Source of the DNA: a bacterium
GTDB taxonomy: Bacteria; UBA10199; 2-02-FULL-44-16; JAAZCA01
Length of the DNA stretch: 64,000 bases
Direction of reading: 5' to 3'
Assembly (NCBI GenBank): GCA_021810905.1
Contig: JAJZQH010000003.1
Coordinates: 1,897 to 65,896 of the forward strand
Both the position numbers and the translations under genes were made by a program. Shown here one piece after another: positions 9,653 through 59,000 of this stretch (the first letter of the stretch is position 1; each line of letters opens with the position of its first letter). The notes beneath the pieces were generated by a model, which saw nothing but the letters and a program-made list of their open reading frames with translations, searched no databases and was not told the origin of the DNA.

Positions 9653-10675
9653 TCAGCATAGTCTCGGAAGTTCAGCCCCCTGCAGCAACTGGACGATTTT
9701 TTCCTCCCCGCCTTCGCCGCACATCACGACGTGGCAATCATCACATTCTAACACTTTACCGATGACCGATGCGTGTTCCCCATATCGATGCCGACGGAGC
9801 GTTTCGACAATCCCCTTGCTCGCTCCGGAGGAAGCGAAGATGCAGACATTCCCTTCATTGGCGAGGTAGAGAGGATTTACGCCCAGCATGTCCGCGGCCA
9901 TAACGGTCTCATGCAGGATGGGAAGCCGCACCTGTTCGATGCGCACGCCGAACCCCCCTAGCTGCGAGATCTCGTTTAAGAGCGTTCCCAACCCGCCACG
10001 CGTGATATCGCGCATGCAATGAATACGATTCCCAAACTCTTTCAGCACACCCGCAATCATATCGTTGAGTGGAGCGCAGTCGCTTTGAATCCGCCGTTCG
10101 AACCCCAACCCTTCACGAATTGAAAGTATATGGATGCTGTGATTGCCGAGCTGTCCGGAGATGATGACATCGTCGCCTGGCCGAATGGACGATATCGAAA
10201 GATGTATATCATTAGGCTGAAAAATACCGATGCCGGATGTGTTGATAAAAATCTTGTCGACCTCGCCGCGTTTGACGACCTTCGTATCCCCGGCAACGAT
10301 ATACACTTCCGCCTCCAGTGCCGCGTCACGGATGGAATGCAGGATCTGTTCGAAATCCGAAAGCGGGAAGCCCTCCTCCAGGACGAAGGCGAGCGTCAGG
10401 TACAGCGGCTTGGCGCCGCTAACAGCCAGGTCGTTCACCGTGCCGCAAACGGCGAGCTTACCAATATTCCCGCCGTGAAAAAAAATCGGATCCAGAACAA
10501 AAGAATCGGTGGTGATAGCAATGCGATCGGCCTTCCACTCGAGTACGGTGCTGTCCTCCATCTGGCCTCGGTGGGTCTCACCGAGGCATCGCACGATGAC
10601 ATCTCTGATGAGATCCCCACTCAACTTGCCACCGGTTCCGTGATCGAGCACAATGCGATCTGACAGATAATTCAT
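9653..10675 (-). CDS. hypE: HypE (carbamoyl dehydratase, PurM-like) with C-terminal PRLC
   Basis: ORF 9653..10693 (TTG-initiated in the track). Likely ATG at 10675 (MNYLSDRIVLDHGTGGK). AIR-synthase-related fold motifs. The protein ends ...GAELPRLC, matching the PR[IV]C terminal-cysteine motif of HypE. Confidence 0.88.
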   Translation of the reverse strand: MNYLSDRIVLDHGTGGKLSGDLIRDVIVRCLGETHRGQMEDSTVLEWKADRIAITTDSFVLDPIFFHGGNIGKLAVCGTVNDLAVSGAKPLYLTLAFVLEEGFPLSDFEQILHSIRDAALEAEVYIVAGDTKVVKRGEVDKIFINTSGIGIFQPNDIHLSISSIRPGDDVIISGQLGNHSIHILSIREGLGFERRIQSDCAPLNDMIAGVLKEFGNRIHCMRDITRGGLGTLLNEISQLGGFGVRIEQVRLPILHETVMAADMLGVNPLYLANEGNVCIFASSGASKGIVETLRRHRYGEHASVIGKVLECDDCHVVMCGEGGEEKIVQLLQGAELPRLC

Positions 10676-10700
10676 TTCCAAGCCGCCTATCAATAAAAGA

Positions 10701-10716
10701 GCAACGATGGTGCCAA
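10701..10716 (-). promoter_or_regulatory. Sigma-54 (-24/-12) promoter candidate for the hypE-hypF-rSAM-hydrolase-NRPS operon
   Basis: The minus strand reads TTGGCACCATCGTTGCT (TGGCAC-N5-TTGC). The -12 GC lies ~25 nt upstream of the hypE ATG at 10675. An A/T-rich tract lies further upstream (10800-10850). Confidence 0.6.
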
Positions 10717-10874
10717 ATTTCGCGAGTCACCGGCAAAGCCAGAGATTATACGGTCCGCACAAAATAAGCCCTTCGCAAACATAGTGAGCACAGTGTTACA
10801 CATGCAAAAAAAAAGCAAGGGCAATACAAATGAATTCATATCCCAAACCTTACAGGTCGAAAAGTTAACCGCGC

Positions 10875-10913
10875 TCAAAAATGAGAGAACGGGAGGGGAC
10901 GTCCCGTTCTCTC
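10875..10913 (-). terminator. Rho-independent terminator of the small gene 10935..11228
   Basis: Perfect 12-bp stem GAGAGAACGGGA (10883-10894) / TCCCGTTCTCTC (10902-10913) with a 7-nt loop. On the minus strand it is followed by ATTTTTGAG. Confidence 0.7.
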
Positions 10914-10934
10914 AGGTTGAACTGCTTCGAAAAC

Positions 10935-11228
10935 CTATGCCTCTTTAGGCGATCTGTGATAGCGATTCTTACGCTTGCCATCGCGTTGATTGAGCTCATG
11001 ATATATGAAAGTGGACAACGTCTTGATGACTCTCTCTTCCAGGGGGAGGAGATTCTCTCGCGCCAGCTCTCTCTTCCACCTCTTCGATATGCCGCGAAGA
11101 AAGAGGACGATGCGCTCCACCGTGCGGCCGTCCAGGTGTCCGATGCGGACGTCGGCCTTCTGAATCCTGTTATGGTCAAATCTCAGAGGCCTGAAATCAG
11201 CATTCAAGCGCTTCAAGAACGCCTGCAT
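10935..11228 (-). CDS. Small basic hypothetical protein (97 aa)
   Basis: ORF 10935..11228, followed by its own terminator hairpin. No family recognised. An overlapping plus-strand ORF (10881..11237) looks less coding-like. Confidence 0.4.
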   Translation of the reverse strand: MQAFLKRLNADFRPLRFDHNRIQKADVRIGHLDGRTVERIVLFLRGISKRWKRELARENLLPLEERVIKTLSTFIYHELNQRDGKRKNRYHRSPKEA

Positions 11229-11300
11229 GAGTCCTGATGCCTTATTCCTCCTGGTCTCATCTTTCGGTAGATGGAAATCGTCCAGGGGCTCGTCTTTCTT

Positions 11301-11939
11301 CTATCGGAAATAGGATGCGATCAACGAGGCTGCGATGAAGGCCATGATGCACCCGATGATGATATCCAGCCACCTCCATACGACGGCTCTCTTCAAGATG
11401 GAAGAGAGAAGGTGCGAGAAGAGCGCCAACGCGGAAAACCAGAGGAGTTCCGCCAGAAAAATGCCGAGGAGAAAGAAGGGCCTTTGAGGGAGAGATAATT
11501 GCCCGCCGACGCTGCCGATCAGGACGATGTTGTCCAACAGCGCATGCGGATTTAACCAGGAGAAGGCGAGAGTCGAGGCGACGATCTTTCCCAACGTAGG
11601 ACCGTTCGGCATGCCTCCGTTTGCGTTGAGGACTTTCGGTCTGATCGCCGACTTGAAGGAGAGGAATCCGTAATACAGGAGAAACAGGGCTCCTCCCCAA
11701 AGGGCGACGTTTTTCACCGTGGGCGAACGGGAAATGAAGAACCCCACGCCGTAGACCCCGGCCACGGCGAGGGAGACGTTCAGGATGATCGAGAGGGCGG
11801 CGATCGTCAGGACGTGTTGACGTTGCAGCCCCTGCCGCAGGACGAACGCATTCTGCGCGCCGATGGCAACGATGAGGCCGAGATTGAGGGCCAGTCCCTG
11901 GGAGAGAGGAGTGAGCGAGCAATCCATCAAGTTCATCAT
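11301..11939 (-). CDS. LysE/ArgO-family basic amino-acid exporter
   Basis: ORF 11301..11939. Aligns by eye with ArgO: GAQNAFVLRQG, WGGALFLLYYGF..FK, WLNPHALLDNIVLIGSVGGQL. Six hydrophobic segments. Confidence 0.85.
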   Translation of the reverse strand: MMNLMDCSLTPLSQGLALNLGLIVAIGAQNAFVLRQGLQRQHVLTIAALSIILNVSLAVAGVYGVGFFISRSPTVKNVALWGGALFLLYYGFLSFKSAIRPKVLNANGGMPNGPTLGKIVASTLAFSWLNPHALLDNIVLIGSVGGQLSLPQRPFFLLGIFLAELLWFSALALFSHLLSSILKRAVVWRWLDIIIGCIMAFIAASLIASYFR

Positions 11940-19174: not shown

Positions 19175-21808
19175 CTACAGCAACTCTCTCAACACGGAAG
19201 CATATGGACCTTTCGCTATCTTTTCGAGGGCCGAATGCGAGAGCCGCCGGATCCTTTCTTTGCTCAAGCCGAGCATGCCTCCCACTTCCTCATGCGTATG
19301 ACCTGCGAGGTGGCATTGGAGCACTATGATTTTTTCCCTGTCGCTCAATCCCGATCCCTCAATCGCCATGTCGAGTTTCGTGATGGCATCGCTTCGAAGC
19401 GCGAGATGATCCGGCCCGACCTCTCCCAAATCGGTCACCCGGCCTTCCAACGTGAAATCACCATCTTCTTCGTCCAGCGGCGCAGAGAAGGAGACTTCCC
19501 GCCTTGCTGCCGCTCCCCGCTGTATCATCATTTTAAAGAGCGTCAACGAGAGCGAACGCTTGACATAGGTCTCAAAACTCGCGATCGAGGGATCATAGCG
19601 TTGCGCCAGCTTGTGGAGCTCAATCCTTCCTGCCTGGAGAAGCGCCCCAAAGCTCATGTTCGCCCCGCCAAACCTTGTCATCACGGAAGAAGCAATGCCC
19701 GCCATCAACGGCTCATAAAAAAAGATCAGGTGATCGAGTGCCTGCCGGTCGCCGGACTTGGCCATCCAGAGGAGAAGCATCTTCTCACGCTGATCCAGAA
19801 ATATTCCGCCGCCGCTCCTTCGCTTTGTCGTTATCGTCGAATAGACGTCCATCCCATAGTGCGAAAACGCCCAATCGATCATCCGCCCTTCACTTTCTGA
19901 ACCGCGCCACAGATTGCGGAGATAACCATAGAGGCCCATCAATCCCGAGTTCCTCTCTCCAACATGCGAGCGAAAATCTCCCTGCACGATGCCAGCTGCA
20001 TCCTTTGCGCCCGCTTCGCACATCATTCCAGCGAGATAAAAAGCAATGACCGAATCAGGCACGCGGCGCCAGCCCGAGAGCTTCCCGCCTCTCCGCTCAG
20101 CCAGACGAAGCTGCAGCGCAAATGGCATTTCTTCGGCTGCGGATACACCACAATAATCCAGGATTTTATCGACTACCACTCTCGAATCGTCAGGTGTCTT
20201 CCTCAGACTAAAATGCGTGTAGAGACCTTTCAGCGATTGACCGATCTCCGGGACGACCGTACTCTCCATCTCGCGACAGGAAACAAACCTAACGTGAGGC
20301 AGGCCATTGAGTTCCTGCACCCTCTCCATAAGGCGCAGAATCGTCGCGAGGGGAACCTTCTCCCACGGCCAATTCCTGTTATATCGCAAACAGAGGCACT
20401 GTTGTTCGTAGGAAAGATCTTCAAACCTCTCAACTCCGAGTTGATCGAGCATGAAATCCAGCGCAGAACCTCCGTAGCCTTCCGGAACCCTGAGCCAATA
20501 ATGTTCAAGCAAGCCTGAGAGCGTCGCGCCGAGCTCATCGAGCACGATCTCATTCAGTTTCTTACCTGGCATCGCCCTCAGATGCGGACATTTCAAACCG
20601 TTCTGCTCGGGTAAGAGTCCTCTGGCTATCTCCAGCAGTTTCACCTGCGTGGAAGCAGGCATTCTTTCCCATTTTATGAGTTCGCACTCTAGAAGACCCT
20701 TCAGCTGCACATCCCAGGGAAGGATCTCAAATGACGGAACGCCCACATCATCAAGCAGTGCATCGATTATTCTGCGGGCCTCTTTTCCCCGGTTGAGATA
20801 ATTATTATACAGTCCAATCAGTGTAGAACTGAGTTCTGGCATTTCGATGTCCCTGAAGTGGTCGAAAGTCAAAAACCTCGGATGCACAACGCCAGCCTCA
20901 TTCGCCAAGCGAAAAAGCAGATGTCGCTTAAGCTCCACGCTAATTTTATCCCAGTGGATACGCTGATAACGCAGCCCGATGAATCTCGCCTGTTCCGCCA
21001 GAGACAATTCCTCAAACCTCTGCACTCCTAAATGATCGAGCATGAAATCCACGATCCCGCCTGCACCGTGTTCGTCCGTCCACATCCGAGAATAATGTTT
21101 GTAAAGCCCTTGGCACTGCGCTTTCCATCCCGGCAACCTCATTTTGAAATGATCGAATCCCAGCAGGCGAGGATGTGGCAGGTTTTGAACCAGCGCCATC
21201 TGCTCGAGTATTCTGACCTGTGCACTGAGAGAGAGATGAGAGACATTCTTAAAGGGAGCGGAATCAACCCGCAACCGGTCGATCTCTGCCTGAATGCGCA
21301 ACTCCTCCATGGGATGATACGTGTATCGAAAGGAGCCGAGTCCGCGGGTCCCGAATTTCAGGCAGATATCAGCTATGGAGACGCTTGCCCCCTCGATCAG
21401 CGCGAGCGCCGATGCGACGAGCATCTTTGCGGGTTCGAAAGAGAGTATTCCCAGGATATGGGCGTCATGCGCGATAATGATCGCGTGAGAGGGAGAGTCA
21501 AAGCCGTGGAGTTTGAGCGCATCGCGCGTCATCGGGCTGCTCTCGTCGACAAAACGCATTGCTTGCCGATCGAGCGCCCTCCGGATCTCGGCCGGCGTCT
21601 GCCGGTGTGATCCATCTCGCTCCCCGTATTCATCCGCGGACGACGGCGTTGCAGAGTGCTCTTCGGTGTCAACGCCGCAGGATTCAAGCTCCTGGGATTC
21701 GGCGCAGGGCGGTATCTCGTCGAGGGCAGCTGTCTCTTCAGCAAGGACTAAGCTCCCCAACAGCTCCAGCTGCGAAGCGAGGTCTCCTGTAGATTGCAGC
21801 GCGGCCAT
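19175..21808 (-). CDS. Giant sigma-70-family protein: ~690-aa N-terminal extension with five ~98-aa tandem repeats plus C-terminal sigma2/sigma4 domains
   Basis: ORF 19175..21808 with AAGGGGAGG RBS. The C-terminal ~185 aa carry region 2-like (YDPSIASFETYVKRSL) and region 4 HTH-like (LSDREKIIVLQCHLAGHTHEEVGGMLGLSKERIRRLSHSALEKI) sequence. Repeat anchors GLYKHY, GLYNNY, GLLEHY, GLYTHF and GLYGYL sit at residues 234, 332, 432, 528 and 625. Confidence 0.75.
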   Translation of the reverse strand: MAALQSTGDLASQLELLGSLVLAEETAALDEIPPCAESQELESCGVDTEEHSATPSSADEYGERDGSHRQTPAEIRRALDRQAMRFVDESSPMTRDALKLHGFDSPSHAIIIAHDAHILGILSFEPAKMLVASALALIEGASVSIADICLKFGTRGLGSFRYTYHPMEELRIQAEIDRLRVDSAPFKNVSHLSLSAQVRILEQMALVQNLPHPRLLGFDHFKMRLPGWKAQCQGLYKHYSRMWTDEHGAGGIVDFMLDHLGVQRFEELSLAEQARFIGLRYQRIHWDKISVELKRHLLFRLANEAGVVHPRFLTFDHFRDIEMPELSSTLIGLYNNYLNRGKEARRIIDALLDDVGVPSFEILPWDVQLKGLLECELIKWERMPASTQVKLLEIARGLLPEQNGLKCPHLRAMPGKKLNEIVLDELGATLSGLLEHYWLRVPEGYGGSALDFMLDQLGVERFEDLSYEQQCLCLRYNRNWPWEKVPLATILRLMERVQELNGLPHVRFVSCREMESTVVPEIGQSLKGLYTHFSLRKTPDDSRVVVDKILDYCGVSAAEEMPFALQLRLAERRGGKLSGWRRVPDSVIAFYLAGMMCEAGAKDAAGIVQGDFRSHVGERNSGLMGLYGYLRNLWRGSESEGRMIDWAFSHYGMDVYSTITTKRRSGGGIFLDQREKMLLLWMAKSGDRQALDHLIFFYEPLMAGIASSVMTRFGGANMSFGALLQAGRIELHKLAQRYDPSIASFETYVKRSLSLTLFKMMIQRGAAARREVSFSAPLDEEDGDFTLEGRVTDLGEVGPDHLALRSDAITKLDMAIEGSGLSDREKIIVLQCHLAGHTHEEVGGMLGLSKERIRRLSHSALEKIAKGPYASVLRELL

Positions 21809-21882: not shown

Positions 21883-23403
21883 TCACGGATTATCGGAGCG
21901 CCGTCGTCGGAAATCCTCGAGAAATTCCGCTAGAGGCATTTTGAATTCGCCTGATCCGCCGTTCGCCATCGAGTTCCGCCACATCAATCCAGCAAGGCGC
22001 TGCTGAACGCCCTCGTCCTCTATGACGAGCGCTTCCAGGAGCAGGTTGCGACCGCCTTGCGCGCAGTTCGAGAGAATGAATAAGAGCGGGGCATCATTGC
22101 GCATTTCAAGACGTTCCCGCATCTTTCGCAGATTTGCGAGCAGCGAATTGAAAACCTTCACCGCATTCTTGTTGCCGATGAAGACAATATCGCGGTTCAT
22201 CAAACCGCCCAATCCAGGGGTTTCGCCGGTTTTCAGCCAAAGCTCAAGAGAGCAGCGAAAGCCGTGCTCCCCATAGACCGTCGCAAATCCGGGTCGCAGC
22301 TCAAAGCCCGCGTACCTCATCATCTCGAAGAGCGCTACGTGGAACCCTGGTCTCCACGTATCGTCATCAAAGACGATGAGCATGGAACCGCCTTCCGAGA
22401 TCCGCCTTTCGCATCCGCACAGGAGCTCATGCATCCTGGTGAGGTACATACGATCGAATGTGTGCAGGGGATCCATCTCCCAGTCCATCGCCTCAGGGTG
22501 TACCCACGTCACCAGATCAAAGGTCTCAAGAGAGTCGCCATCATCCGCAAGGCCCTCAATAAATCCGGATTGCACCATCCCACATCCGTCTCCGGCACGG
22601 ACCTGATGAATCTTTCCCTCAGGATCGTCCCCAAGAGCGCACTGAAACTCTTTGAGATTGATCCTGGCGCCCTCCAATTTCCAACTCAAGACATCAAATC
22701 CGATAGTCTTCACGAGACCCGGAAGCGCCAGTCTCATCCCCAAATTCTCGTACCATTTCCCCGCGCCGACCGAAAGTACGGTGCGCGCCTCACACTTCTT
22801 TCCGACTTCCTGATAGAGGAGTATTTGCGCGGTATCGTAATACAATCTTGGGACGAGTTCGTCGGCGCCTCCGCCATTATAGAAATGTTGATAGAGCCTC
22901 AGCAGATCATACCGCTGCGCAGCGACAAGCTGTTCGACCGAGAAGTGATCTCTGCTTGCAGACAGTGCCCGCGGCACTGAGTCCCTCAACTCGATATTTT
23001 TTTGAATCCATTGCGGGAGTTCAATGAGATGGTTCCCCGCAGCTTGCTGCGGGGTTTCCGCCACCATCTCCCTTGAGGGGAGAGGGAAGGGTGAGGGTGA
23101 TCGTCGATGTTGCCGGTGATACCCCGCGGCTTGCCGCGGGGAGCATTCATTTTCCGGAGCCGACTGTTCGCGATCGCGCGTGACTGGCAGTCGCGGAGTA
23201 ACCGGCCCAGGCGCGCCACGATATTGATCGCCAACCGCCACATATTCCGACGCCACGTCATTCAGGCATATACCCTGACGGGAATCGGGCAGCGGTATAA
23301 TATCATCGTCGCAGACCACGAACACTTCCTCTGCACCGGATTCCTCTGCAGGCAGCCCGTCTGCCGCGGCCATTACATCGAGATTTAACGGTTTTACGGT
23401 CAT
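21883..23403 (-). CDS. Hypothetical protein with class-I SAM-methyltransferase-like core; the ORF reads through a MITE copy
   Basis: ORF 21883..23403. Good RBS (AGGAGA) before ATG 23403. Rossmann MTase-like motif series VLSVGAGKW / IGFDV / FDLVTWVHP / ISEGGSMLIVF. Residues ENECSPRQAAGYHRQH...AAGNHLIEL are encoded by the repeat at 23021-23151. Confidence 0.5.
   Translation of the reverse strand: MTVKPLNLDVMAAADGLPAEESGAEEVFVVCDDDIIPLPDSRQGICLNDVASEYVAVGDQYRGAPGPVTPRLPVTRDREQSAPENECSPRQAAGYHRQHRRSPSPFPLPSREMVAETPQQAAGNHLIELPQWIQKNIELRDSVPRALSASRDHFSVEQLVAAQRYDLLRLYQHFYNGGGADELVPRLYYDTAQILLYQEVGKKCEARTVLSVGAGKWYENLGMRLALPGLVKTIGFDVLSWKLEGARINLKEFQCALGDDPEGKIHQVRAGDGCGMVQSGFIEGLADDGDSLETFDLVTWVHPEAMDWEMDPLHTFDRMYLTRMHELLCGCERRISEGGSMLIVFDDDTWRPGFHVALFEMMRYAGFELRPGFATVYGEHGFRCSLELWLKTGETPGLGGLMNRDIVFIGNKNAVKVFNSLLANLRKMRERLEMRNDAPLLFILSNCAQGGRNLLLEALVIEDEGVQQRLAGLMWRNSMANGGSGEFKMPLAEFLEDFRRRRSDNP
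23021..23151 (-). mobile_element. MITE/REP-like three-hairpin element, copy a (inverted, inside ORF 21883..23403)
   Basis: The reverse complement aligns end to end with copies at 46752, 52424 and 55828 (aatgaatgctccccgcggcaagccgcgggg...ccccgcagcaagctgcgggg..catctcattga). Confidence 0.8.
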
Positions 23404-23471
23404 ATATCTCCTGCCCTGACGACATGGACGTTATCGCAGAATTCCTGAAAAAGTTGCTCGATATTCGCACC

Positions 23472-23631
23472 CAAATCCGACACTTGAATTATCACTCAAA
23501 TCCTCCCTCCCTTGATGGGAGGGAGTTTGAGGGAGGGTGACCATGAAGACTTTCGTCACCCAAGGAATGAGTACCACCCTCTCCCTAACCCTCTCCCATC
23601 AAGGGAGAGGGAATTTTTTGTGTCGGATTTC
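23472..23631. repeat. Palindromic hairpin-cluster element bounded by an 11-bp inverted repeat
   Basis: AAATCCGACAC (23472-23482) pairs with GTGTCGGATTT (23621-23631). Internal hairpins are CTCCCTCCC-ttgat-GGGAGGGAG, GGGTGAC..GTCACCC and CCCTCTCCC-atcaa-GGGAGAGGG. It lies between divergent genes. Confidence 0.6.
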
Positions 23632-23695
23632 AGCGCAAAAAAACCCGCAACTTCTTCCCGGCTGCAGCCGATACACGCCGTAATCGAGGAATTCA

Positions 23696-25210
23696 ATGAG
23701 CACTACATTCACTCCAGGTATCGGCGGTTTTCCCGGCGTGATTTCGCCGCAGGAAGGCGTGGATAGCGTCATCCTAACCTCTACGGGCGATTATGACTTC
23801 GCCTGCGAACGCCCGGCGGAGGATGCTGCCGGCGGAAATCTCGGACTCATCGCCATCGACCACGCGCTCGAAGATGCCGGATTTGATCCGGAAAAGATCA
23901 GCACCATCTATCGCGGGAAAAAACGCAGGCCTCATCTCGATACTGAACGTACGCGGATCGTGGAAGGAATGCGCGCATTGGGCGCCGGAGAAAAAGGCGC
24001 GGTCATAGGCATCTCCACCACGACCGACGAATATTTCAGATTTGCCCCGCTCGCAAAACTCCTCAGAATGGCGTTTCCGGACGCCACCCTCATCGCGGGC
24101 GGGGCGCACTTCGTGCGCGAGCGCATCGGCGGATTCGCGGACCCGGTAGAGACTGCGCTCATGATGGGGCTGGTTGACGCCGTTGTGGTGGGACACGCGC
24201 AGCCGTTCGTAGACCTGGTCGTCAAGCACGGAGGCAGAATCGAAGAGGTCGATGCGCCTGGCTTCTATCGGCTCGATCCTGTTTCAAAGCGCGTCACGGG
24301 TCGCGGCAAGGGGAAATTTCCCGACCTGAACAAACTCACTCTTCTCTACGATCCGGTGTCGATGGGCATCCGCACGATGCTCGCCGACGGCTGCAGAAAC
24401 GGCTGCAATTTCTGCACGGTGGCGGGCAGGCCGGTCGCGCTCTTCGATCCCGAGATCGTCGTCAGGGACTTAAGCGCCGCACTACTTGAGCATCAGGACT
24501 TTCGCATCTCGCTCTATGATTCCAATCCGCTCGAACCCGCGCTTCGGAATTTCTATCGCAGCGTCTTTCTGGCGCTTGATGAAACAAACCAGTCCCGAAA
24601 ATTCGCCTATATCGATCCTGCCACGCTGGCCCACGATTTTCTGGAATCTCTGAACACCATATCGTTCGGCACGATCTGGTCCTTCAACGCGGGCCGCGAC
24701 GCGGTAACCGAGAAGCAGGCACGCGCGATCGGCACGAGGTATAAAGGAAAATATAAGGACCAGCGGATGCTCGACGCGGAGAAGAAGGCGCTGATCGAAT
24801 TCATCGATGCCATGAAGATGCTGAAAAAGCTCTATCCCGAAGAGCCGCCGTTCGGCCTGATGCTCTCCTATATCGTGACGCCGTTTGAAACCAGGCAGTC
24901 GGCGATGGCGATGTACGAAGAGATGCGCGAGTTCCTGGCGCTGGCCGACAAATCGATCGTGTTCCGCTTCGCCGTGCATGCCCTCAGGCCCTATCCGGGA
25001 ACGACCCTCAGAAATAAATATTCGAGTGTCATCGACATGGAAGAATTCAATTTCCGCCTCGACCTGGGCGACAGGATCTCGCCGTGGAAGAAGGGCGCGG
25101 CCCCAGCCCTCGCCTTTCATCGTGCAGTGACGATGATTCCCCCGGTCAACGATCAGACAGACTACCTCAAGGCCTTCAAGCGCGCCATTAACACTCATCT
25201 TCCCCGGTGA
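23696..25210 (+). CDS. Radical SAM protein with N-terminal Rossmann/B12-binding-like domain (paralog 1)
   Basis: ORF 23696..25210 with GAGGAA RBS. CRNGCNFC (CxxxCxxC). Long blocks are shared with 31766..33244 (GGAHFVRERIGGFADPVE, GHAQPFVDLVVKH, AGRDAVTE, LSYIVTPF, PYPGT, ISPWK, C-terminal LPR). Confidence 0.7.
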   Translation: MSTTFTPGIGGFPGVISPQEGVDSVILTSTGDYDFACERPAEDAAGGNLGLIAIDHALEDAGFDPEKISTIYRGKKRRPHLDTERTRIVEGMRALGAGEKGAVIGISTTTDEYFRFAPLAKLLRMAFPDATLIAGGAHFVRERIGGFADPVETALMMGLVDAVVVGHAQPFVDLVVKHGGRIEEVDAPGFYRLDPVSKRVTGRGKGKFPDLNKLTLLYDPVSMGIRTMLADGCRNGCNFCTVAGRPVALFDPEIVVRDLSAALLEHQDFRISLYDSNPLEPALRNFYRSVFLALDETNQSRKFAYIDPATLAHDFLESLNTISFGTIWSFNAGRDAVTEKQARAIGTRYKGKYKDQRMLDAEKKALIEFIDAMKMLKKLYPEEPPFGLMLSYIVTPFETRQSAMAMYEEMREFLALADKSIVFRFAVHALRPYPGTTLRNKYSSVIDMEEFNFRLDLGDRISPWKKGAAPALAFHRAVTMIPPVNDQTDYLKAFKRAINTHLPR

Positions 25211-46751: not shown

Positions 46752-46901
46752 CAATGAATGCTCCCCGCGGCAAGCCGCGGGGTATCACCGGCAACATCTC
46801 CGATCACCCTCACCCCTGCCTACCGGCAGGCAGGCTTCCCTCTCCCCTCAAGGGAGAGTGGCGGAACCCCCGCAACAAGCTGCGGGGAATCATCTCATTG
46901 A
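46752..46901 (+). mobile_element. MITE/REP-like three-hairpin element, copy b (with ~20-bp internal insertion)
   Basis: caatgaatgctccccgcggcaagccgcgggg...ccctctcccctcaagggagag...cccgcaacaagctgcggggaatcatctcattga. It ends directly against the stop codon (46902-46904) of the phosphatase gene. Confidence 0.8.
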
Positions 46902-48059
46902 CTATCTTTCAAAGAGTGCGGTTGAAATGAGGCGATGTATATCGGTATTTTCGATCGTCCCTGACTTGAAGTGGTCCTTCATGCCAATCGCGAAGAGAGG
47001 GACGTCGACTGCGGTGTGCGCGGCCTCAAGTGAAGCGGGATCGTTCGGATCGAGGACGCGCGGATACGCAGAGTGCGGACCCGTCGCCCACGTGATGATC
47101 GGGTAAAGCCTTCCGTCTGCATCCTCGCCGGCATTTGCGAGGACGCTGCTGCCTGCCTTCGCATAGCCGTTTATCGCAAGTCCGCCGGTTTCGTGATCCG
47201 CCGTCACCAGTATCAGCGCCTTCTCCGGATCCGTCATCGAGGCACCGGCGCGGACAGCGGCGTCGAACTCGATGGTTTCTTCAAACGCGTCGTGCGCCCG
47301 GTTATCATGTTCTGCCTGGTCGATTCGACCGCCCTCGACCATGAGGAAAAATCCTTTTGGATTTTTTGAGAGCCGTTCGATGGCGATCTTCGTCATCTCG
47401 GGGAGCGAGGGCCCTGAATATCCGGACTGCTTTCTCTCGAGCACAAATGGGATATGGCTGTCCGCGAAGCAGCCGACAACCTTTTGATCGATCGGCGCCA
47501 TCTTTATATCCCGCAGATTGTATGCCAGCGTGAAGCCCTTCCTGGTCACTTCATCCTTTGAGAAATATTTACAGCCACCTCCCATTGTCACATCGATCTC
47601 CGAGTCCAGCAGCTGGCCCGCGATTTTTTGCTCCTCGTTGCGATCAGCAACGTGTGCATAAAAACCCGCCGGCGTTGCATGGGTGATGCGAGTAGTGGTG
47701 ACGAGACCCACGGAGAGCCCCATTTTTTTTGCCTCTTCGGCTATCGTTACGAGCCTGTGATTCAGATCGCACCTGGGTCCCAGACCTAGACAACCGTTAT
47801 CGGCCTTGCTTCCGGTAGCCATAGCTGTAATTGCAGCCGCTGAGTCGGTCACCATCTTGTTGTGAGATCCTGTGCGCACGTGAGCGATGAGCGGGAGCTC
47901 ATCAATGAAGAGACCGCCGCGCCGCTCATTCTTATAAAGCCGAGTTGCAGTGATATCCGCGACGCCCATCCCGTCTCCGATGAAGAGGATGACATCTCTC
48001 GCATGAGCGGTTTGCGAGATGAGGCATGCTGCCAGCGCTATTGCAATTTTGAATTTCAT
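46902..48059 (-). CDS. phoA: Alkaline phosphatase (PhoA family), secreted
   Basis: ORF 46902..48059. Signal peptide, ILFIGDGMG, active-site VTDSAAAITAMATG and ADHETGG. Confidence 0.88.
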   Translation of the reverse strand: MKFKIAIALAACLISQTAHARDVILFIGDGMGVADITATRLYKNERRGGLFIDELPLIAHVRTGSHNKMVTDSAAAITAMATGSKADNGCLGLGPRCDLNHRLVTIAEEAKKMGLSVGLVTTTRITHATPAGFYAHVADRNEEQKIAGQLLDSEIDVTMGGGCKYFSKDEVTRKGFTLAYNLRDIKMAPIDQKVVGCFADSHIPFVLERKQSGYSGPSLPEMTKIAIERLSKNPKGFFLMVEGGRIDQAEHDNRAHDAFEETIEFDAAVRAGASMTDPEKALILVTADHETGGLAINGYAKAGSSVLANAGEDADGRLYPIITWATGPHSAYPRVLDPNDPASLEAAHTAVDVPLFAIGMKDHFKSGTIENTDIHRLISTALFER

Positions 48060-52423: not shown

Positions 52424-52557
52424 TAATGAATGCTCCCCGCGGCAAGCTGCGGGGTATCATCGGCAACATCTCCGATCACCCTCACCCTTCCCTCTCCCCT
52501 CAAGGGAGAGGGTGGTGGAAACCCCGCAGCAAGCTGCGGGGAATTATCTCATTGATG
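52424..52557 (+). mobile_element. MITE/REP-like three-hairpin element, copy c
   Basis: taatgaatgctCCCCGCGGcaagCTGCGGGGtatcatcggcaacatctccgatcaccctcacccttCCCTCTCCCctcaaGGGAGAGGGtggtggaaaCCCCGCAGCaaGCTGCGGGGaattatctcattgatg. Confidence 0.85.
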
Positions 52558-55827: not shown

Positions 55828-55961
55828 TAATGAATGCTCCCCGCGGCAAGCCGCGGGGTATCACCGGCAACATCGACGATCACCCTCACCCTTCCCTCTC
55901 CCCTCAAGGGAGAGGGTGGCGGAAACCCCGCAGCAAGCTGCGGGGAATCATCTCATTGATG
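55828..55961 (+). mobile_element. MITE/REP-like three-hairpin element, copy d
   Basis: Near-identical to copy c. Lies 41 bp downstream of the cusA stop. Confidence 0.85.
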
Positions 55962-56002
55962 GGCCATCTTGACACACGCGGCAGGATGTTTGCTCGAGAA
56001 GA

Positions 56003-59000
56003 TCAGCCTCTGAATTCCCTCTTCTTCCAGAGGAGATAAATTGCGGGGTACACCAGGAGTTCCATCGCGAATGACGTGACGAGTCCGCCTACCATCGGAG
56101 CTGCGATGCGCTTCATCATGTCCGCGCCCGTGCCGATGGACCACATGATCGGGATGAGTCCCATGAATGCGGCCATGACAGTCATCATCTTCGGCCGGAT
56201 TCTTTTCACAGCGCCGTGCACGATCGATTCCTTGAGATCTGAGATATCCTTGAGCATCCCGTTCTTGCGCGCGTCCTCGTGCGCGATGTCGAGATACAGG
56301 AGCATGAAAATGCCGGTCTCCGCATCGAGACCCATGAGCGCGATGAGCCCCACCCATACCGCGATCGACATGTGATAACCCAGGATGTACAGGAGCCAGA
56401 TCGCGCCGATCGCGGAGAACGGAACCGCGAGGAGCACGATCGCGGCCTTGATGCCGGACTTCGTGTTCAGGTAGAGCAGCACGATGATGATGAAGAGCGC
56501 GAGCGGCAACACCACCTTGAGCTTCTCGCGCACGTGCAGCATGTTCTCGTATTGTCCGCTCCACGCGAGCGCGTAACCTGACGGCAGCTCAAGGTTCGCA
56601 TTCACCGCTTTTTTTGCGTCAGATACAAAGCTGCCCACGTCGCGTCCGGCCAGATCTACGTACACATAGCCCGACAGCATTCCGTTCTCGTTTCGAAGCA
56701 TGCTCGGGCCCTGCACCAGGCGAATATCGGCCAGCGCAGCGATGGGCACCTGCGCGCCGTCGGGCGCCGCGACCAGCACGCGCGAGAGCGCGCTCATGTC
56801 GTCGCGAAGTTCCCTGCTGTAGCGCACGTTGATCGGATAGCGCTCTCGCCCTTCCACCGTCGTCGAGACGTTCTCTCCTCCGATGGCCGAGAGGATCGTC
56901 TCTTCCGCGTCGGCAACCGAAATTCCAAGCCGCGCGAGTTCATCACGCTTGAGGTCGAAATCCAGGAAGTATCCGCCTGCGGCGCGCTCCGCGAATACGC
57001 TCCTCGTACCCGGCACGCCCTTGAGTATAGTTTCAAGGCGGCTGCCGATCTTCTCGATTTCCTTTGTATCGTTTCCGAGGATCTTGATTCCTATCGGCGT
57101 GCGTATGCCGGTGGAGAGCATGTCGATGCGCGCCCTGATCGGCATGGTCCACGCGTTGGAGACGCCCGGGAACTGCATGGCCTTGTCCATCTCTGCAACG
57201 AGTTCGTCCCAGCTCAACCTGTCGTTCCAGATATGCCTCAATGGAGCCTTCATTATATCCGGCATCCATGAGTACCATCGTTTTTTTCCACGCCACTCAT
57301 CCATCGGTTTGAGCACGACCGTCGTCTCCATCATCGAAAACGGCGCAGGATCCGTGGAAGTCTCGGCGCGGCCCGCCTTGCCGAAGACCCGCTCTACTTC
57401 TGGAAACGATTTCAATATGCGGTCCTGCTGCTGAAGGAGATTCTGCGCCTCAGTCACCGATATGCCCGGCAGCGTCGTGGGCATGTAGAGGATAGTGCCC
57501 TCGTTCAAAGGCGGCATGAATTCGCTGCCCATCATGACGAACGGCGGGATCGCGGTAAGGAGTAAAACCCCCGCGATCACGATGGTCCTCTTCGGATGTT
57601 TTAATACGAGCCTGCATGCGGGTTCGTAAACTCGGAAGAGCCTCTTGCTCACCGGATGTTTTTCCTCGGCGTAATAGCTGCCGACGAAGACGCGGTTGTA
57701 GATCCAGGAGAGCCAGGCGGGCTTGAAGTTGCGAAAATCCATGCGCGTGAAGAGCATGCGCATCACCGGATCGAGCGTCACCGCGAGGAGCGCGGCGATC
57801 GCCATGGCGAACGTCTTCGAATACGCCAGGGGCTTGAAGAGCCGCCCTTCCTGATCCACGAGCGTGAAGATCGGCAGAAATGCGACTGCGATGACCAGCA
57901 GCGAAAAGAACACGGAGGGCCCGACCTGCTTGAGCGCGTCGAGGCGCACCTGATGGAAGTCTCCCTTGCGGCCGCCGTCCTTCCATTGCTGCAGCTTCTT
58001 GTAGGCGTTCTCCACCTCCACGATCGCGCCGTCCACGAGCACGCCGATGGATATGGCGATTCCCGCGAGCGACATGATGTTCGCGGTGAGCCCCATGAAG
58101 TAGAAGGGTATGAACGCGAGGAGCACCGACAATGGGATCGTGAATATCGGCACAACGGCCGAGGGGATATGCCAGAGAAAGATCAGGATCACTATCGATA
58201 CGATGATCATTTCCTCTATCAGCGTGTCGGTGAGCGTGGAGATCGAACGCAGTATGAGATCCGATCTGTCATATGTGGTGACGAGCGTAACGCCTTTGGG
58301 TAAAGACGGTTCGATCTCCTTGAGCTTCTCCTTCACGCGATCGATCACTCGAAGCGCGTTTTCTCCCTGCCGCATGATCACGATGCCGCCCACCGCGTCG
58401 CCTCTTCCGTCGAGGTCTGCCACGCCGCGCCTGATATCCGGCCCAAGCTCCACGTTGCCGATCTGCCCGATGGTAACCGGCGTGCCGGCTATCGGGTCGG
58501 CGCCGACCGCTATATTCCGGATATCCTCCACGCTCTTTGCGTACCCGCGGCCTCGCACCATGTATTCGCGTCCGGAAAATTCCACGAGGCGGCCGCCGAC
58601 GTCGTTGTTGTTGCGCCTGATCGCCTCCACGACCTGTCCGATCGGGATCTTGTAGGCCGCGAGTTTATTGGGATCCACGCCCACCTGATACTGGCGCACG
58701 AACCCGCCGACGGTCGCAACCTCCGCGACCCCGGGGACCGACTGGAGATAATAACGCAGATACCAGTCCTGATAGCTGCGCAGCCCAGCGAGATCGTTCT
58801 GTCCGGATTCATCCACCAGCGCATACTGAAAAACCCATCCCAGGCTCGTTGCGTCTGGACCGAGTTCCGTGGTCACTCCCTCGGGCAGTCGCGGAGTGAT
58901 CTTGCTCAGATATTCGAGCGCGCGGCTTCGCGCCCAGTATATGTCCGTCCCGTCCTCGAAGATGATGTAGACGTAGGAGAAACCGAAGTCGGAGAAACCG

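Follow-up and report, generated by a model that had tools for sequence, protein, structure and literature searches.

Results

An open frame that runs through a repeat

We analyzed a stretch of 64,000 nucleotides (nt) from an uncultured bacterium of the UBA10199 lineage (contig JAJZQH010000003.1 of assembly GCA_021810905.1), referred to below as the window, in which the frame of a gene for a methyltransferase-like protein runs without a stop through one copy of a short palindromic repeat, the element. All positions are those of the window. The gene is laid out as follows.

21883 to 23403, minus strand: open reading frame (ORF) with an ATG start (ATG1), 506 codons plus stop, comprising an N-terminal extension, the element peptide and a methyltransferase-like body
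23407 to 23412, minus strand: Shine-Dalgarno-like AGGAGA, 3 nt from ATG1, with an anti-Shine-Dalgarno duplex of -7.4 kcal/mol
23152 to 23403, minus strand: codons 1-84, the N-terminal extension, acidic and modeled as disordered
21886 to 23025, minus strand: codons 127-506, the conserved body, with a predicted class I S-adenosylmethionine-dependent methyltransferase fold and a helical C-terminal part, as judged from homolog alignment, AlphaFold and Foldseek

A preliminary description of this locus had named the ATG start and its AGGAGA ribosome-binding site, a stop-free passage through an inverted copy of the element, the peptide that the element adds, an acidic N-terminal part and a methyltransferase-like body. 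Each of these holds. The frame lies on the minus strand and encodes 506 amino acids (aa) at a ribosome-binding-site spacing of 3 nt, and the duplex of ATG1 with the anti-Shine-Dalgarno sequence is among the most stable of the in-frame start candidates. Residues 1-84 have an isoelectric point of 4.1, with 16 aspartates and glutamates versus 6 lysines and arginines. The element encodes ...ENECSPRQAAGYHRQHRRSPSPFPLPSREMVAETPQQAAGNHLIEL... within the 506-aa ORF, exactly the peptide that had been quoted, and the tryptic peptide predicted to span the upstream junction (codons 84/85) is EQSAPENECSPR.

As to the body, support comes from the fold and not from any sequence family. The 506-aa protein has no Pfam or NCBIfam match (NCBIfam at E up to 0.1), and the body has no curated-family sequence match in Pfam, NCBIfam or the PDB; its motif I reads VLSVGAGKWYE and is partly conserved among homologs. 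When the AlphaFold model of the body was compared with the PDB by Foldseek, it matched COMT, SgvM and RlmL with E ≈ 1e-5, a probability of 1.0 and target-normalized TM-scores of up to 0.6. The body is modeled as folded, with a predicted local distance difference test score (pLDDT) of 70-93 in its core, and residues 1-125 fall below 50. The model suggests a body that is methyltransferase-like at the level of fold only.

The 7,521 nt around the gene are 100% identical in a second public assembly, GCA_027327785.1, so the element junctions are no artefact of the window. The same gene has been annotated in two ways, as a 394-aa protein that starts at ATG113 within the element (P0001) and, in the second assembly, as the 506-aa protein (P0004). 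A search of 5.8 billion proteins for relatives gave four relevant entries, these two along with P0002 and P0003 (see below), and a HMMER scan of 1.84 billion representative proteins added more distant relatives of the body. The host gene family is rare, with 10 relatives among those 1.84 billion representatives. Stand-alone body homologs (P0009, P0011, and P0012; 276-335 aa) begin about 10 residues before a conserved P-x-W-I motif, and the domain is also embedded in proteins of 774 and 3291 aa. Homology of P0002, P0006, P0007, P0009, P0011, and P0012 to the window protein starts at about residue 127-130, directly past the element. A promoter scan of 22900-23750 found none.

The repeat and its copies

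The element occurs in four copies in the window. These copies and the parts of the one inside the gene are given below, with the insertion sequence (IS) orientation defined by the ends described further on.

23021 to 23151, IS orientation on the plus strand: first copy, in the gene, 131 nt including TCAAT; the only copy in the opposite orientation
23026 to 23151, IS orientation on the plus strand: its mobile part, 126 nt, with the left end at 23026 and the right end ...GAGCATTCATT at 23151
23021 to 23025, plus strand: TCAAT, candidate target motif, reading ATTGA in the sense of the gene (codons I127-E128)
23035 to 23054, plus strand: left-end subterminal hairpin, CCCCGCAGC-TT-GCTGCGGGG
23064 to 23086, plus strand: central hairpin module, CCaTCTCCC-TTGAG-GGGAGAGGG, which holds the base change that makes ATG113
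23122 to 23141, plus strand: right-end subterminal hairpin, CCCCGCGGC-TT-GCCGCGGGG, after which AGCATTCATT runs up to the element end
23062 to 23067, minus strand: candidate internal starts ATG113 (23067-23065) and GTG114 (23064-23062), with AAGGGAG in front
46753 to 46901, IS orientation on the minus strand: second copy, intergenic, with a mobile part of 144 nt (46753-46896) and ATTGA at 46897-46901
52425 to 52555, minus strand: third copy, intergenic, with mobile part 52425-52550 plus ATTGA
55829 to 55959, minus strand: fourth copy, intergenic, with mobile part 55829-55954 plus ATTGA; the closest to the in-gene copy

In a four-copy alignment, the copies are mutually 94-98.5% identical. The in-gene copy and the copy at 55829 agree at 129 of 131 bases (98.5%), and one of the two differences, a G-to-T change found only in the in-gene copy, creates ATG113 where the other copies have AGG. 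Read on the minus strand, the in-gene element supplies codons 85-126, NECSPRQ...AAGNHL. The left and right hairpins lie 9 and 10 nt from the element ends. A 20-nt hairpin motif matches 13 times in the window at up to 3 mismatches and 0 times in shuffles, and the element folded as RNA reaches -61.4 kcal/mol (z = -4.6). The second copy, which sits 5 nt past the stop of the ORF at 46902-48059, contains a nested 20-nt palindrome, CCTGCCTACCGGCAGGCAGG, at 46802-46821 together with a 2-nt deletion, giving its mobile part of 144 nt. Over the whole window, Rfam reported no family at gathering score and only chance-level microRNA matches around the element; a literature search for the hairpin sequences found no paper, and a metagenome scan with a pattern specific to the element core gave 0 matches.

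An ortholog without the element

The element is missing from the only close ortholog, P0002 (433 aa, 58% identical), and homology resumes exactly at the element edge. The P0002 gene lies at 10001-11302 of locus L001, is identical in an independent Logan assembly and has a 51-residue extension in frame with the body; its genome (ENA ERZ27237050) carries the element elsewhere, in P0003 and P0010. The comparison with orthologs that the preliminary description had proposed thus yields a protein without the element, yet with an in-frame extension.

The two N termini agree in their first residues, MTVKPLNL in the window protein and MTIEPVTF in P0002 (pattern MT[VI][KE]P[LV]); the BLOSUM62 score of the seven residues after the methionine is reached by 4e-4 to 9e-4 of random pairs when position is locked. 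Under a codon-usage model trained on 25 long ORFs of the window, codons 1-84 score 6.2 nats higher in the gene frame than in the best alternative. Among true in-frame 84-codon windows this value stands at the 22nd percentile, and it is matched or exceeded by 0.3% of off-frame windows and by 0.2% of shuffles. The 51 upstream codons of P0002 score +4.3, a value reached by 1% of off-frame windows.

In-frame start codons are ATG1, several more in the extension, ATG113, and GTG114; the next, TTG139 and GTG143, lie past the conserved motif, and starting there would cut off conserved residues. Past the element, no in-frame ATG, GTG, or TTG occurs before the domain begins with its conserved E-L-P-Q-W-I, so a start downstream of the element is excluded. 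The preliminary description had offered such a start as its second reading; what survives of it is a variant in which translation begins inside the element. Reconstruction of the empty allele puts the nearest start ahead of the domain at GTG55 (ATT stands here where P0002 has ATG52), and therefore part of the extension would have had to be translated before the insertion. Judged from sequence, codons 1-84 appear to be coding and to have been present before the element arrived.

IS200/IS605-type ends and element boundaries

Metagenome-assembled genomes (MAGs) from unrelated phyla contain the 30-nt end AATGAATGCTCCCCGCNGCNNGCNGCGGGG attached to differing cores, and 25 metagenome contigs have it as well. 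In about 14 of these contigs, it stands directly 3' of the stop of a gene on the other strand, the ≈150-aa product of which matches Pfam Y1_Tnp (PF01797) with E = 7e-38, making it an IS200-type tnpA. Because AATGAATGCTCCCCGCNGCNNGCNGCGGGG adjoins the tnpA stop, it represents an IS200-like insertion sequence's right end. In the tnpA-carrying ISs, the left end reads variable flank / TCAAT CTCTG(G/T)GGGTCAGATT CCCCGAAGCTTGCTTCG, that is, TCAAT, a spacer of 9-14 nt and a CCCCG.AGCTTGCT.CG hairpin. On the plus strand, the window element is arranged in the same order: flank / TCAAT GAGATGGTT [CCCCGCAGCTTGCTGCGGGG] ... [CCCCGCGGCTTGCCGCGGGG] AGCATTCATT / flank. Soil metagenomes also hold tnpA-less fusions of the same two IS ends, 129-137 nt long.

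TCAAT abuts the left end in six of six element copies, in at least eight tnpA-carrying ISs and in four soil derivatives, and the flanks beyond it vary. The right end is followed by T, G, A, A, or T and never by a second TCAAT, and no consistent duplication of the flanks is seen across the copies. The element ends look alike (AATGA..TCCCCGC), mainly on account of the palindromic hairpin common to both. At the right end, the final five bases, TCATT, are similar to TCAAT, and a right end that resembles the target is usual in the IS200/IS605 family. IS605-type elements and palindrome-associated transposable elements (PATEs) have subterminal palindromes and a target of 4-6 nt beside the 5' end, cause no duplication, and move as single-stranded DNA through the "peel and paste" action of TnpA (PMC3119063; PMC10055086). 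By analogy with the mechanism of that family (PMC3119063, PMC10055086), TCAAT at 23021-23025 is probably the target site, outside the element itself, leaving 23026-23151, 126 nt, as the mobile part. The repeat at 23021-23151 reported in the preliminary description is confirmed, and only its boundary moves, since its first five bases probably belong to the target. At the homologous place the ortholog P0002 has TCCAT, where nucleotide homology starts (ATTGAACTCCCG versus ATGGAATTCCCG); the MAFFT DNA alignment of the two 5' regions behind this comparison is informative only from ATTGAA/ATGGAA on, the extensions being too diverged.

Other boundary choices gave a 1-nt flank match in four of six copies (p ≈ 0.04) and a 3-nt match in two of six (GAA/GAA, GAC/GAC). 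The corresponding models of a 1-nt or 3-nt target duplication were set aside as less probable than the TCAAT target model once the IS200-type ends had been seen.

With a length of 126 nt (144 nt in one copy), the element is too short for a transposase gene. Its sequence points to a non-autonomous IS200/IS605 derivative of the PATE type, a kind of MITE (miniature inverted-repeat transposable element), and a classical DDE-type MITE is disfavored because the ends are IS200-type. The term MITE, applied to the element earlier, needs the qualification that the element is probably not of the classical inverted-repeat, target-duplicating type.

We also recorded how widely the right end is distributed. 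A species-representative scan with its 30 nt (26 specified positions) gave five matches (L005-L009), conserved in Gorillibacterium, Nitrospirae, and Anaerolineaceae MAGs; in the two MAG loci inspected, no transposase lies beside it. Many soil contigs (L011-L035) have it beside tnpA or in tnpA-less elements of 129-190 nt with different cores. From these sequences, it looks like one widespread IS-end family common to several phyla. A separate observation concerns orientation. The GC skew of the window is negative on the plus strand throughout (-0.01 to -0.09), and three of the four copies are IS-oriented on the minus strand. Members of the IS200/IS605 family such as IS608 and ISDra2 prefer the lagging-strand template; the orientation of the window copies fits this preference, a hint from four copies.

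The element peptide in other proteins

The element peptide is encoded in frame in three further proteins, P0008, P0010, and P0003, making four unrelated proteins in all. P0008 (2289 aa) has the element at residues ≈1764-1806, preceded by 1760 residues and followed by ≈480 open codons. Residues 104-1534 of P0008 are homologous to P0015 (26% identity); this only relative is partial and ends before the insertion point, so it provides no empty site. P0010 (1101 aa, HEAT-like) has the element at residues ≈175-216, between Ala/Pro/Glu-rich stretches. In P0003 (389 aa), it lies at residues ≈55-96, behind an acidic N terminus, and P0003 shares only the element peptide with the window protein. Neither P0003 nor P0010 has an NCBIfam match at E up to 0.1. 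A search with the joined element peptides of the four frames returned only the short ORFs P0013 and P0014 and missed the known in-frame cases.

Those two short ORFs are public small-protein calls that start within element copies (window 55830-56015 and other copies): P0013 (96 aa, MNAPRGKPRGITGN..., in the second open frame) and P0014 (121 aa, on the reverse strand). Both are probably spurious ORFs made by the repeat. As a further observation, P0003, P0010, the product of L001 7733-8680, and the window protein all have long, acidic, low-complexity N termini rich in Ala, Pro, Glu, and Asp. For many such proteins of the two genomes, even very large collections contain almost no relatives, which suggests that the lineage has been sampled poorly.

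Why the frame stays open

The mobile part of 126 nt amounts to 42 codons, and the 144-nt variant is likewise a multiple of three. When the element inserts 5' of a sense ATTGA, the phase ATT|GAx reads it as NECSPRQ... and the phase xxA|TTG|A as MNAPRGK..., and both are open in four of four window copies, the 144-nt one among them; the earlier observation that the same frame is open in other copies thus extends to all of them. The third sense phase is the host's own TGA stop and therefore cannot arise within an ORF. An antisense element meets a stop in all three phases. With the sense orientation always open and the antisense always closed, about half of all insertions into genes would keep an open frame with no help from selection. 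An open frame is therefore to be expected and unremarkable, and it is the position that suggests tolerance: in the window protein, P0003, and P0010, the element sits at a domain boundary in a low-complexity segment. The peptide it adds is basic and rich in Pro, Arg, Gln, and Ser.

Neighboring features

A different palindromic element occupies the divergent intergenic region just upstream of the gene (23464-23639). Its arms, 23498-23539 and 23575-23616, are 42 nt long and 81% complementary, with outer arms at 23464-23483 and 23620-23639, and it contains the same central hairpin module, CCCTCTCCC-ATCAA-GGGAGAGGG, as the in-gene element. The shared sequence suggests that hairpin modules may be shuffled between repeat families. 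The gene directly downstream (19175-21808, minus strand) encodes 877 aa, of which only the last ≈190 residues are like sigma-70/extracytoplasmic function sigma factors (TIGR02937, E = 2e-15; region 4, E = 9e-13); within the long N-terminal part, a sequence recurs at a distance of ≈591 nt (20418-20460 and 21009-21051). At the ortholog locus, L001 9016-9666 encodes a 216-aa Y1_Tnp protein (Pfam E = 4e-11) that resembles REP-associated tyrosine transposases (RAYTs; REP, repetitive extragenic palindromic) and lies 335 nt upstream of the P0002 gene.

Discussion

Probable insertion of the element and competing explanations

We think it probable, from the sequence comparisons above, that the element inserted into the gene and is now carried as 42 extra residues in a 506-aa protein. 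A Y1 (HUH) TnpA supplied in trans would recognize both subterminal hairpins, and the element would move as single-stranded DNA and insert 3' of the fixed pentanucleotide TCAAT without target duplication. At this locus, a copy would have entered 5' of the sense ATTGA (Ile-Glu), exactly at the junction between the acidic, disordered extension and the methyltransferase-like domain. The frame from ATG1 would run through the 42 element codons into the domain, and 42 extra residues in a linker would be expected to do little harm, so that the full-length protein, as we infer, is made and works. This was the first of the two readings in the preliminary description, and it is favored by the element-free ortholog, the matching N termini, the coding-like codon usage, and the recurrence of the element in other proteins. 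The insertion is recent relative to the split between the two ortholog lineages, because it is absent from P0002 and its sequence is only 2 of 131 bases off another copy. Copies in the window and in the related genome are 92-97% identical, like copies within one genome, and the host proteins are only 58% identical; these sequence identities indicate that in both lineages the element either has recently been active or is strongly constrained in sequence.

Several observations weigh against this reading. The window contains no IS200-type tnpA, and none of the element's hairpins occurs within the 21-kb L001 locus around the RAYT-like gene. The ortholog is compatible with a net insertion of 126 nt or of 132 nt, and TCAAT may instead be the first five bases of the element; the empty site is predicted to be CCGGAAATTGAACTCCCG under the 126-nt model and CCGGAACTCCCG under the 132-nt model. 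The low pLDDT of residues 1-125 is partly due to a thin alignment of six sequences. Past the first 7-8 residues, the extensions of the window protein and P0002 have no detectable similarity (E = 0.27). ATG1 of P0002 has a weak Shine-Dalgarno match (-2.2 kcal/mol) compared with ATG52 at the domain start (-6.8 kcal/mol), and given that better match the P0002 extension may be untranslated. A copy so close to another may also simply have not yet been purged, and an intact ORF is no proof of a working protein. Two further points, the 394-aa annotation and the duplex at GTG114, bear on where translation begins.

Translation could start inside the element, at ATG113 or GTG114 with AAGGGAG as the ribosome-binding site, giving a protein of ≈394 aa whose 14-15 N-terminal residues derive from the element (predicted N-terminal peptide (M)VAETPQQAAGNHLIELPQWIQK) and leaving the old extension as an untranslated or irrelevant leader. 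We regard this as unlikely. One public annotation, P0001, does begin at ATG113, but a 394-aa call is a choice of software, and the other public annotation has 506 aa. The duplex at GTG114 (-7.2 kcal/mol) nearly equals that at ATG1 and has the same spacing, whereas at ATG113 the GGGAG abuts the start codon and the duplex reaches only -2.6 kcal/mol. ATG113 arises from the G-to-T change unique to the in-gene copy, and stand-alone homologs have just ≈10 residues before P-x-W-I. The strong hairpins of the element (-61 kcal/mol) could hinder ribosomes arriving from upstream, but the candidate starts themselves lie within the central hairpin. ATG1, its Shine-Dalgarno sequence and the next 126 codons are intact and open, so read-through would occur regardless. 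Even with an internal start, the element would still provide coding sequence, along with a start signal.

It is rather improbable, in our judgment, that the gene has been disabled, by a recent and mildly or strongly harmful insertion that selection has yet to remove, with the frame open merely since half of insertions stay open. The 2 of 131 differences from the copy at 55829, the absence of any need for selection in an orientation that is always open, and the rarity of a family that may be dispensable (10 relatives in 1.84 billion representatives) all fit such a history. Against it, the insertion point coincides exactly with a domain boundary, in a stretch modeled as disordered, where the least damage is expected; the body is free of stops and frameshifts and strongly coding in its codon usage; and three other proteins hold the element in frame, one with ≈480 open codons behind it. 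We find it very hard to credit that the upstream 84 codons were never coding, that the element landed in intergenic or 5' untranslated DNA, and that the long ORF arose by chance fusion. The region is G+C-rich and its other frames are fairly open too (a 93-aa ORF lies on the opposite strand), and in P0002 it is ATG52 that has the better ribosome-binding match, but only 0.2-0.3% of off-frame windows and shuffles reach the in-frame codon usage, the first residues match the ortholog at p < 1e-3, and the empty allele has no start nearer than GTG55. In addition, 93 codons are open upstream of the element, which by a rough estimate from base composition would happen by chance in ≈3% of cases.

Significance

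As far as its sequence tells, the element represents a new family within a known class, a PATE of IS200/IS605 origin whose behavior toward coding regions resembles that of Rickettsia palindromic elements (RPEs). Palindromic insertion in frame is best known from Rickettsia, where no mobilizing enzyme is known; the present host is an unrelated bacterium with 57% G+C, and the element ends identify an IS200/IS605 source. The case also offers a testable rule for which genes stay open: the phase is set by ATTGA, the frame is kept by the 3n length, and only one orientation is open. Recognizing the repeat would improve gene calls, as the disagreement between 394 and 506 aa and the spurious small ORFs in other copies illustrate.

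A bolder idea, which we consider doubtful, is that the element family has been shaped for life inside genes, by its 3n length, the phases set by ATTGA, a closed phase that coincides with the host's TGA, a flexible peptide, and a Shine-Dalgarno-like site followed by GTG. Were this so, the family would be RPE-like coding selfish DNA with a nameable driver, a Y1 (HUH) IS200-type transposase, and it would be remodeling protein linkers and N termini in an uncultured bacterial lineage.

Comparison with known systems

The preliminary description had likened the element to RPEs, a likeness that stands as an analogy and fails as a claim of membership. As summarized in PMC10969869, RPEs (Ogata et al. 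2000, 2002) are palindromic repeats of ≈130-150 bp that occur many times per genome and lie in frame in unrelated genes, where they add a conserved peptide at places seemingly compatible with the fold, all of which resembles the present case. The window differs in that its peptide has no Pfam or NCBIfam match, its host has 56.8% G+C, is uncultured, and is not a Rickettsia, the element ends tie it to IS200/IS605 Y1 transposases, and there are four in-frame cases here versus dozens for RPEs. The libraries searched presumably include the RPE domain models (TIGRFAMs). Rickettsia genomes have ≈30% G+C, and to our knowledge no transposase has been assigned to RPEs.

In architecture, the closest match is with the PATEs of Haloquadratum (PMC3119063) and Geobacillus (PMC10055086), which likewise have no room for a transposase, near-terminal palindromes at both ends, a conserved oligonucleotide beside the 5' end, ends that resemble those of tnpA-carrying ISs, and homogeneous families with more than 90% identity. 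PATEs also cause no target duplication, which is probably true of the window element too. The window element belongs to another sequence family, in a bacterial lineage, has an extra central hairpin module, and inserts in frame into coding sequence, which PMC3119063 and PMC10055086 do not describe. Other small non-autonomous repeats with open frames that extend or interrupt host ORFs in frame are QMITE1/2 of Coxiella (PMC5896051) and intragenic enterobacterial repetitive intergenic consensus sequences and Anabaena MITEs (PMC10969869). These have terminal inverted repeats and target duplication, or no known mechanism, whereas in the window element ATTGA sets the phase and the 3n length keeps the frame.

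REPs and bacterial interspersed mosaic elements with their RAYTs (PMC2817692; PMC3733652) share further features with the element, being G+C-rich hairpin repeats tied to Y1 (HUH) transposases of the IS200 superfamily, mostly in extragenic positions. REPs are units of 20-40 nt tagged GTAG or CGTC, whereas the window element is 126 nt long and has distinct IS200-like left and right ends.

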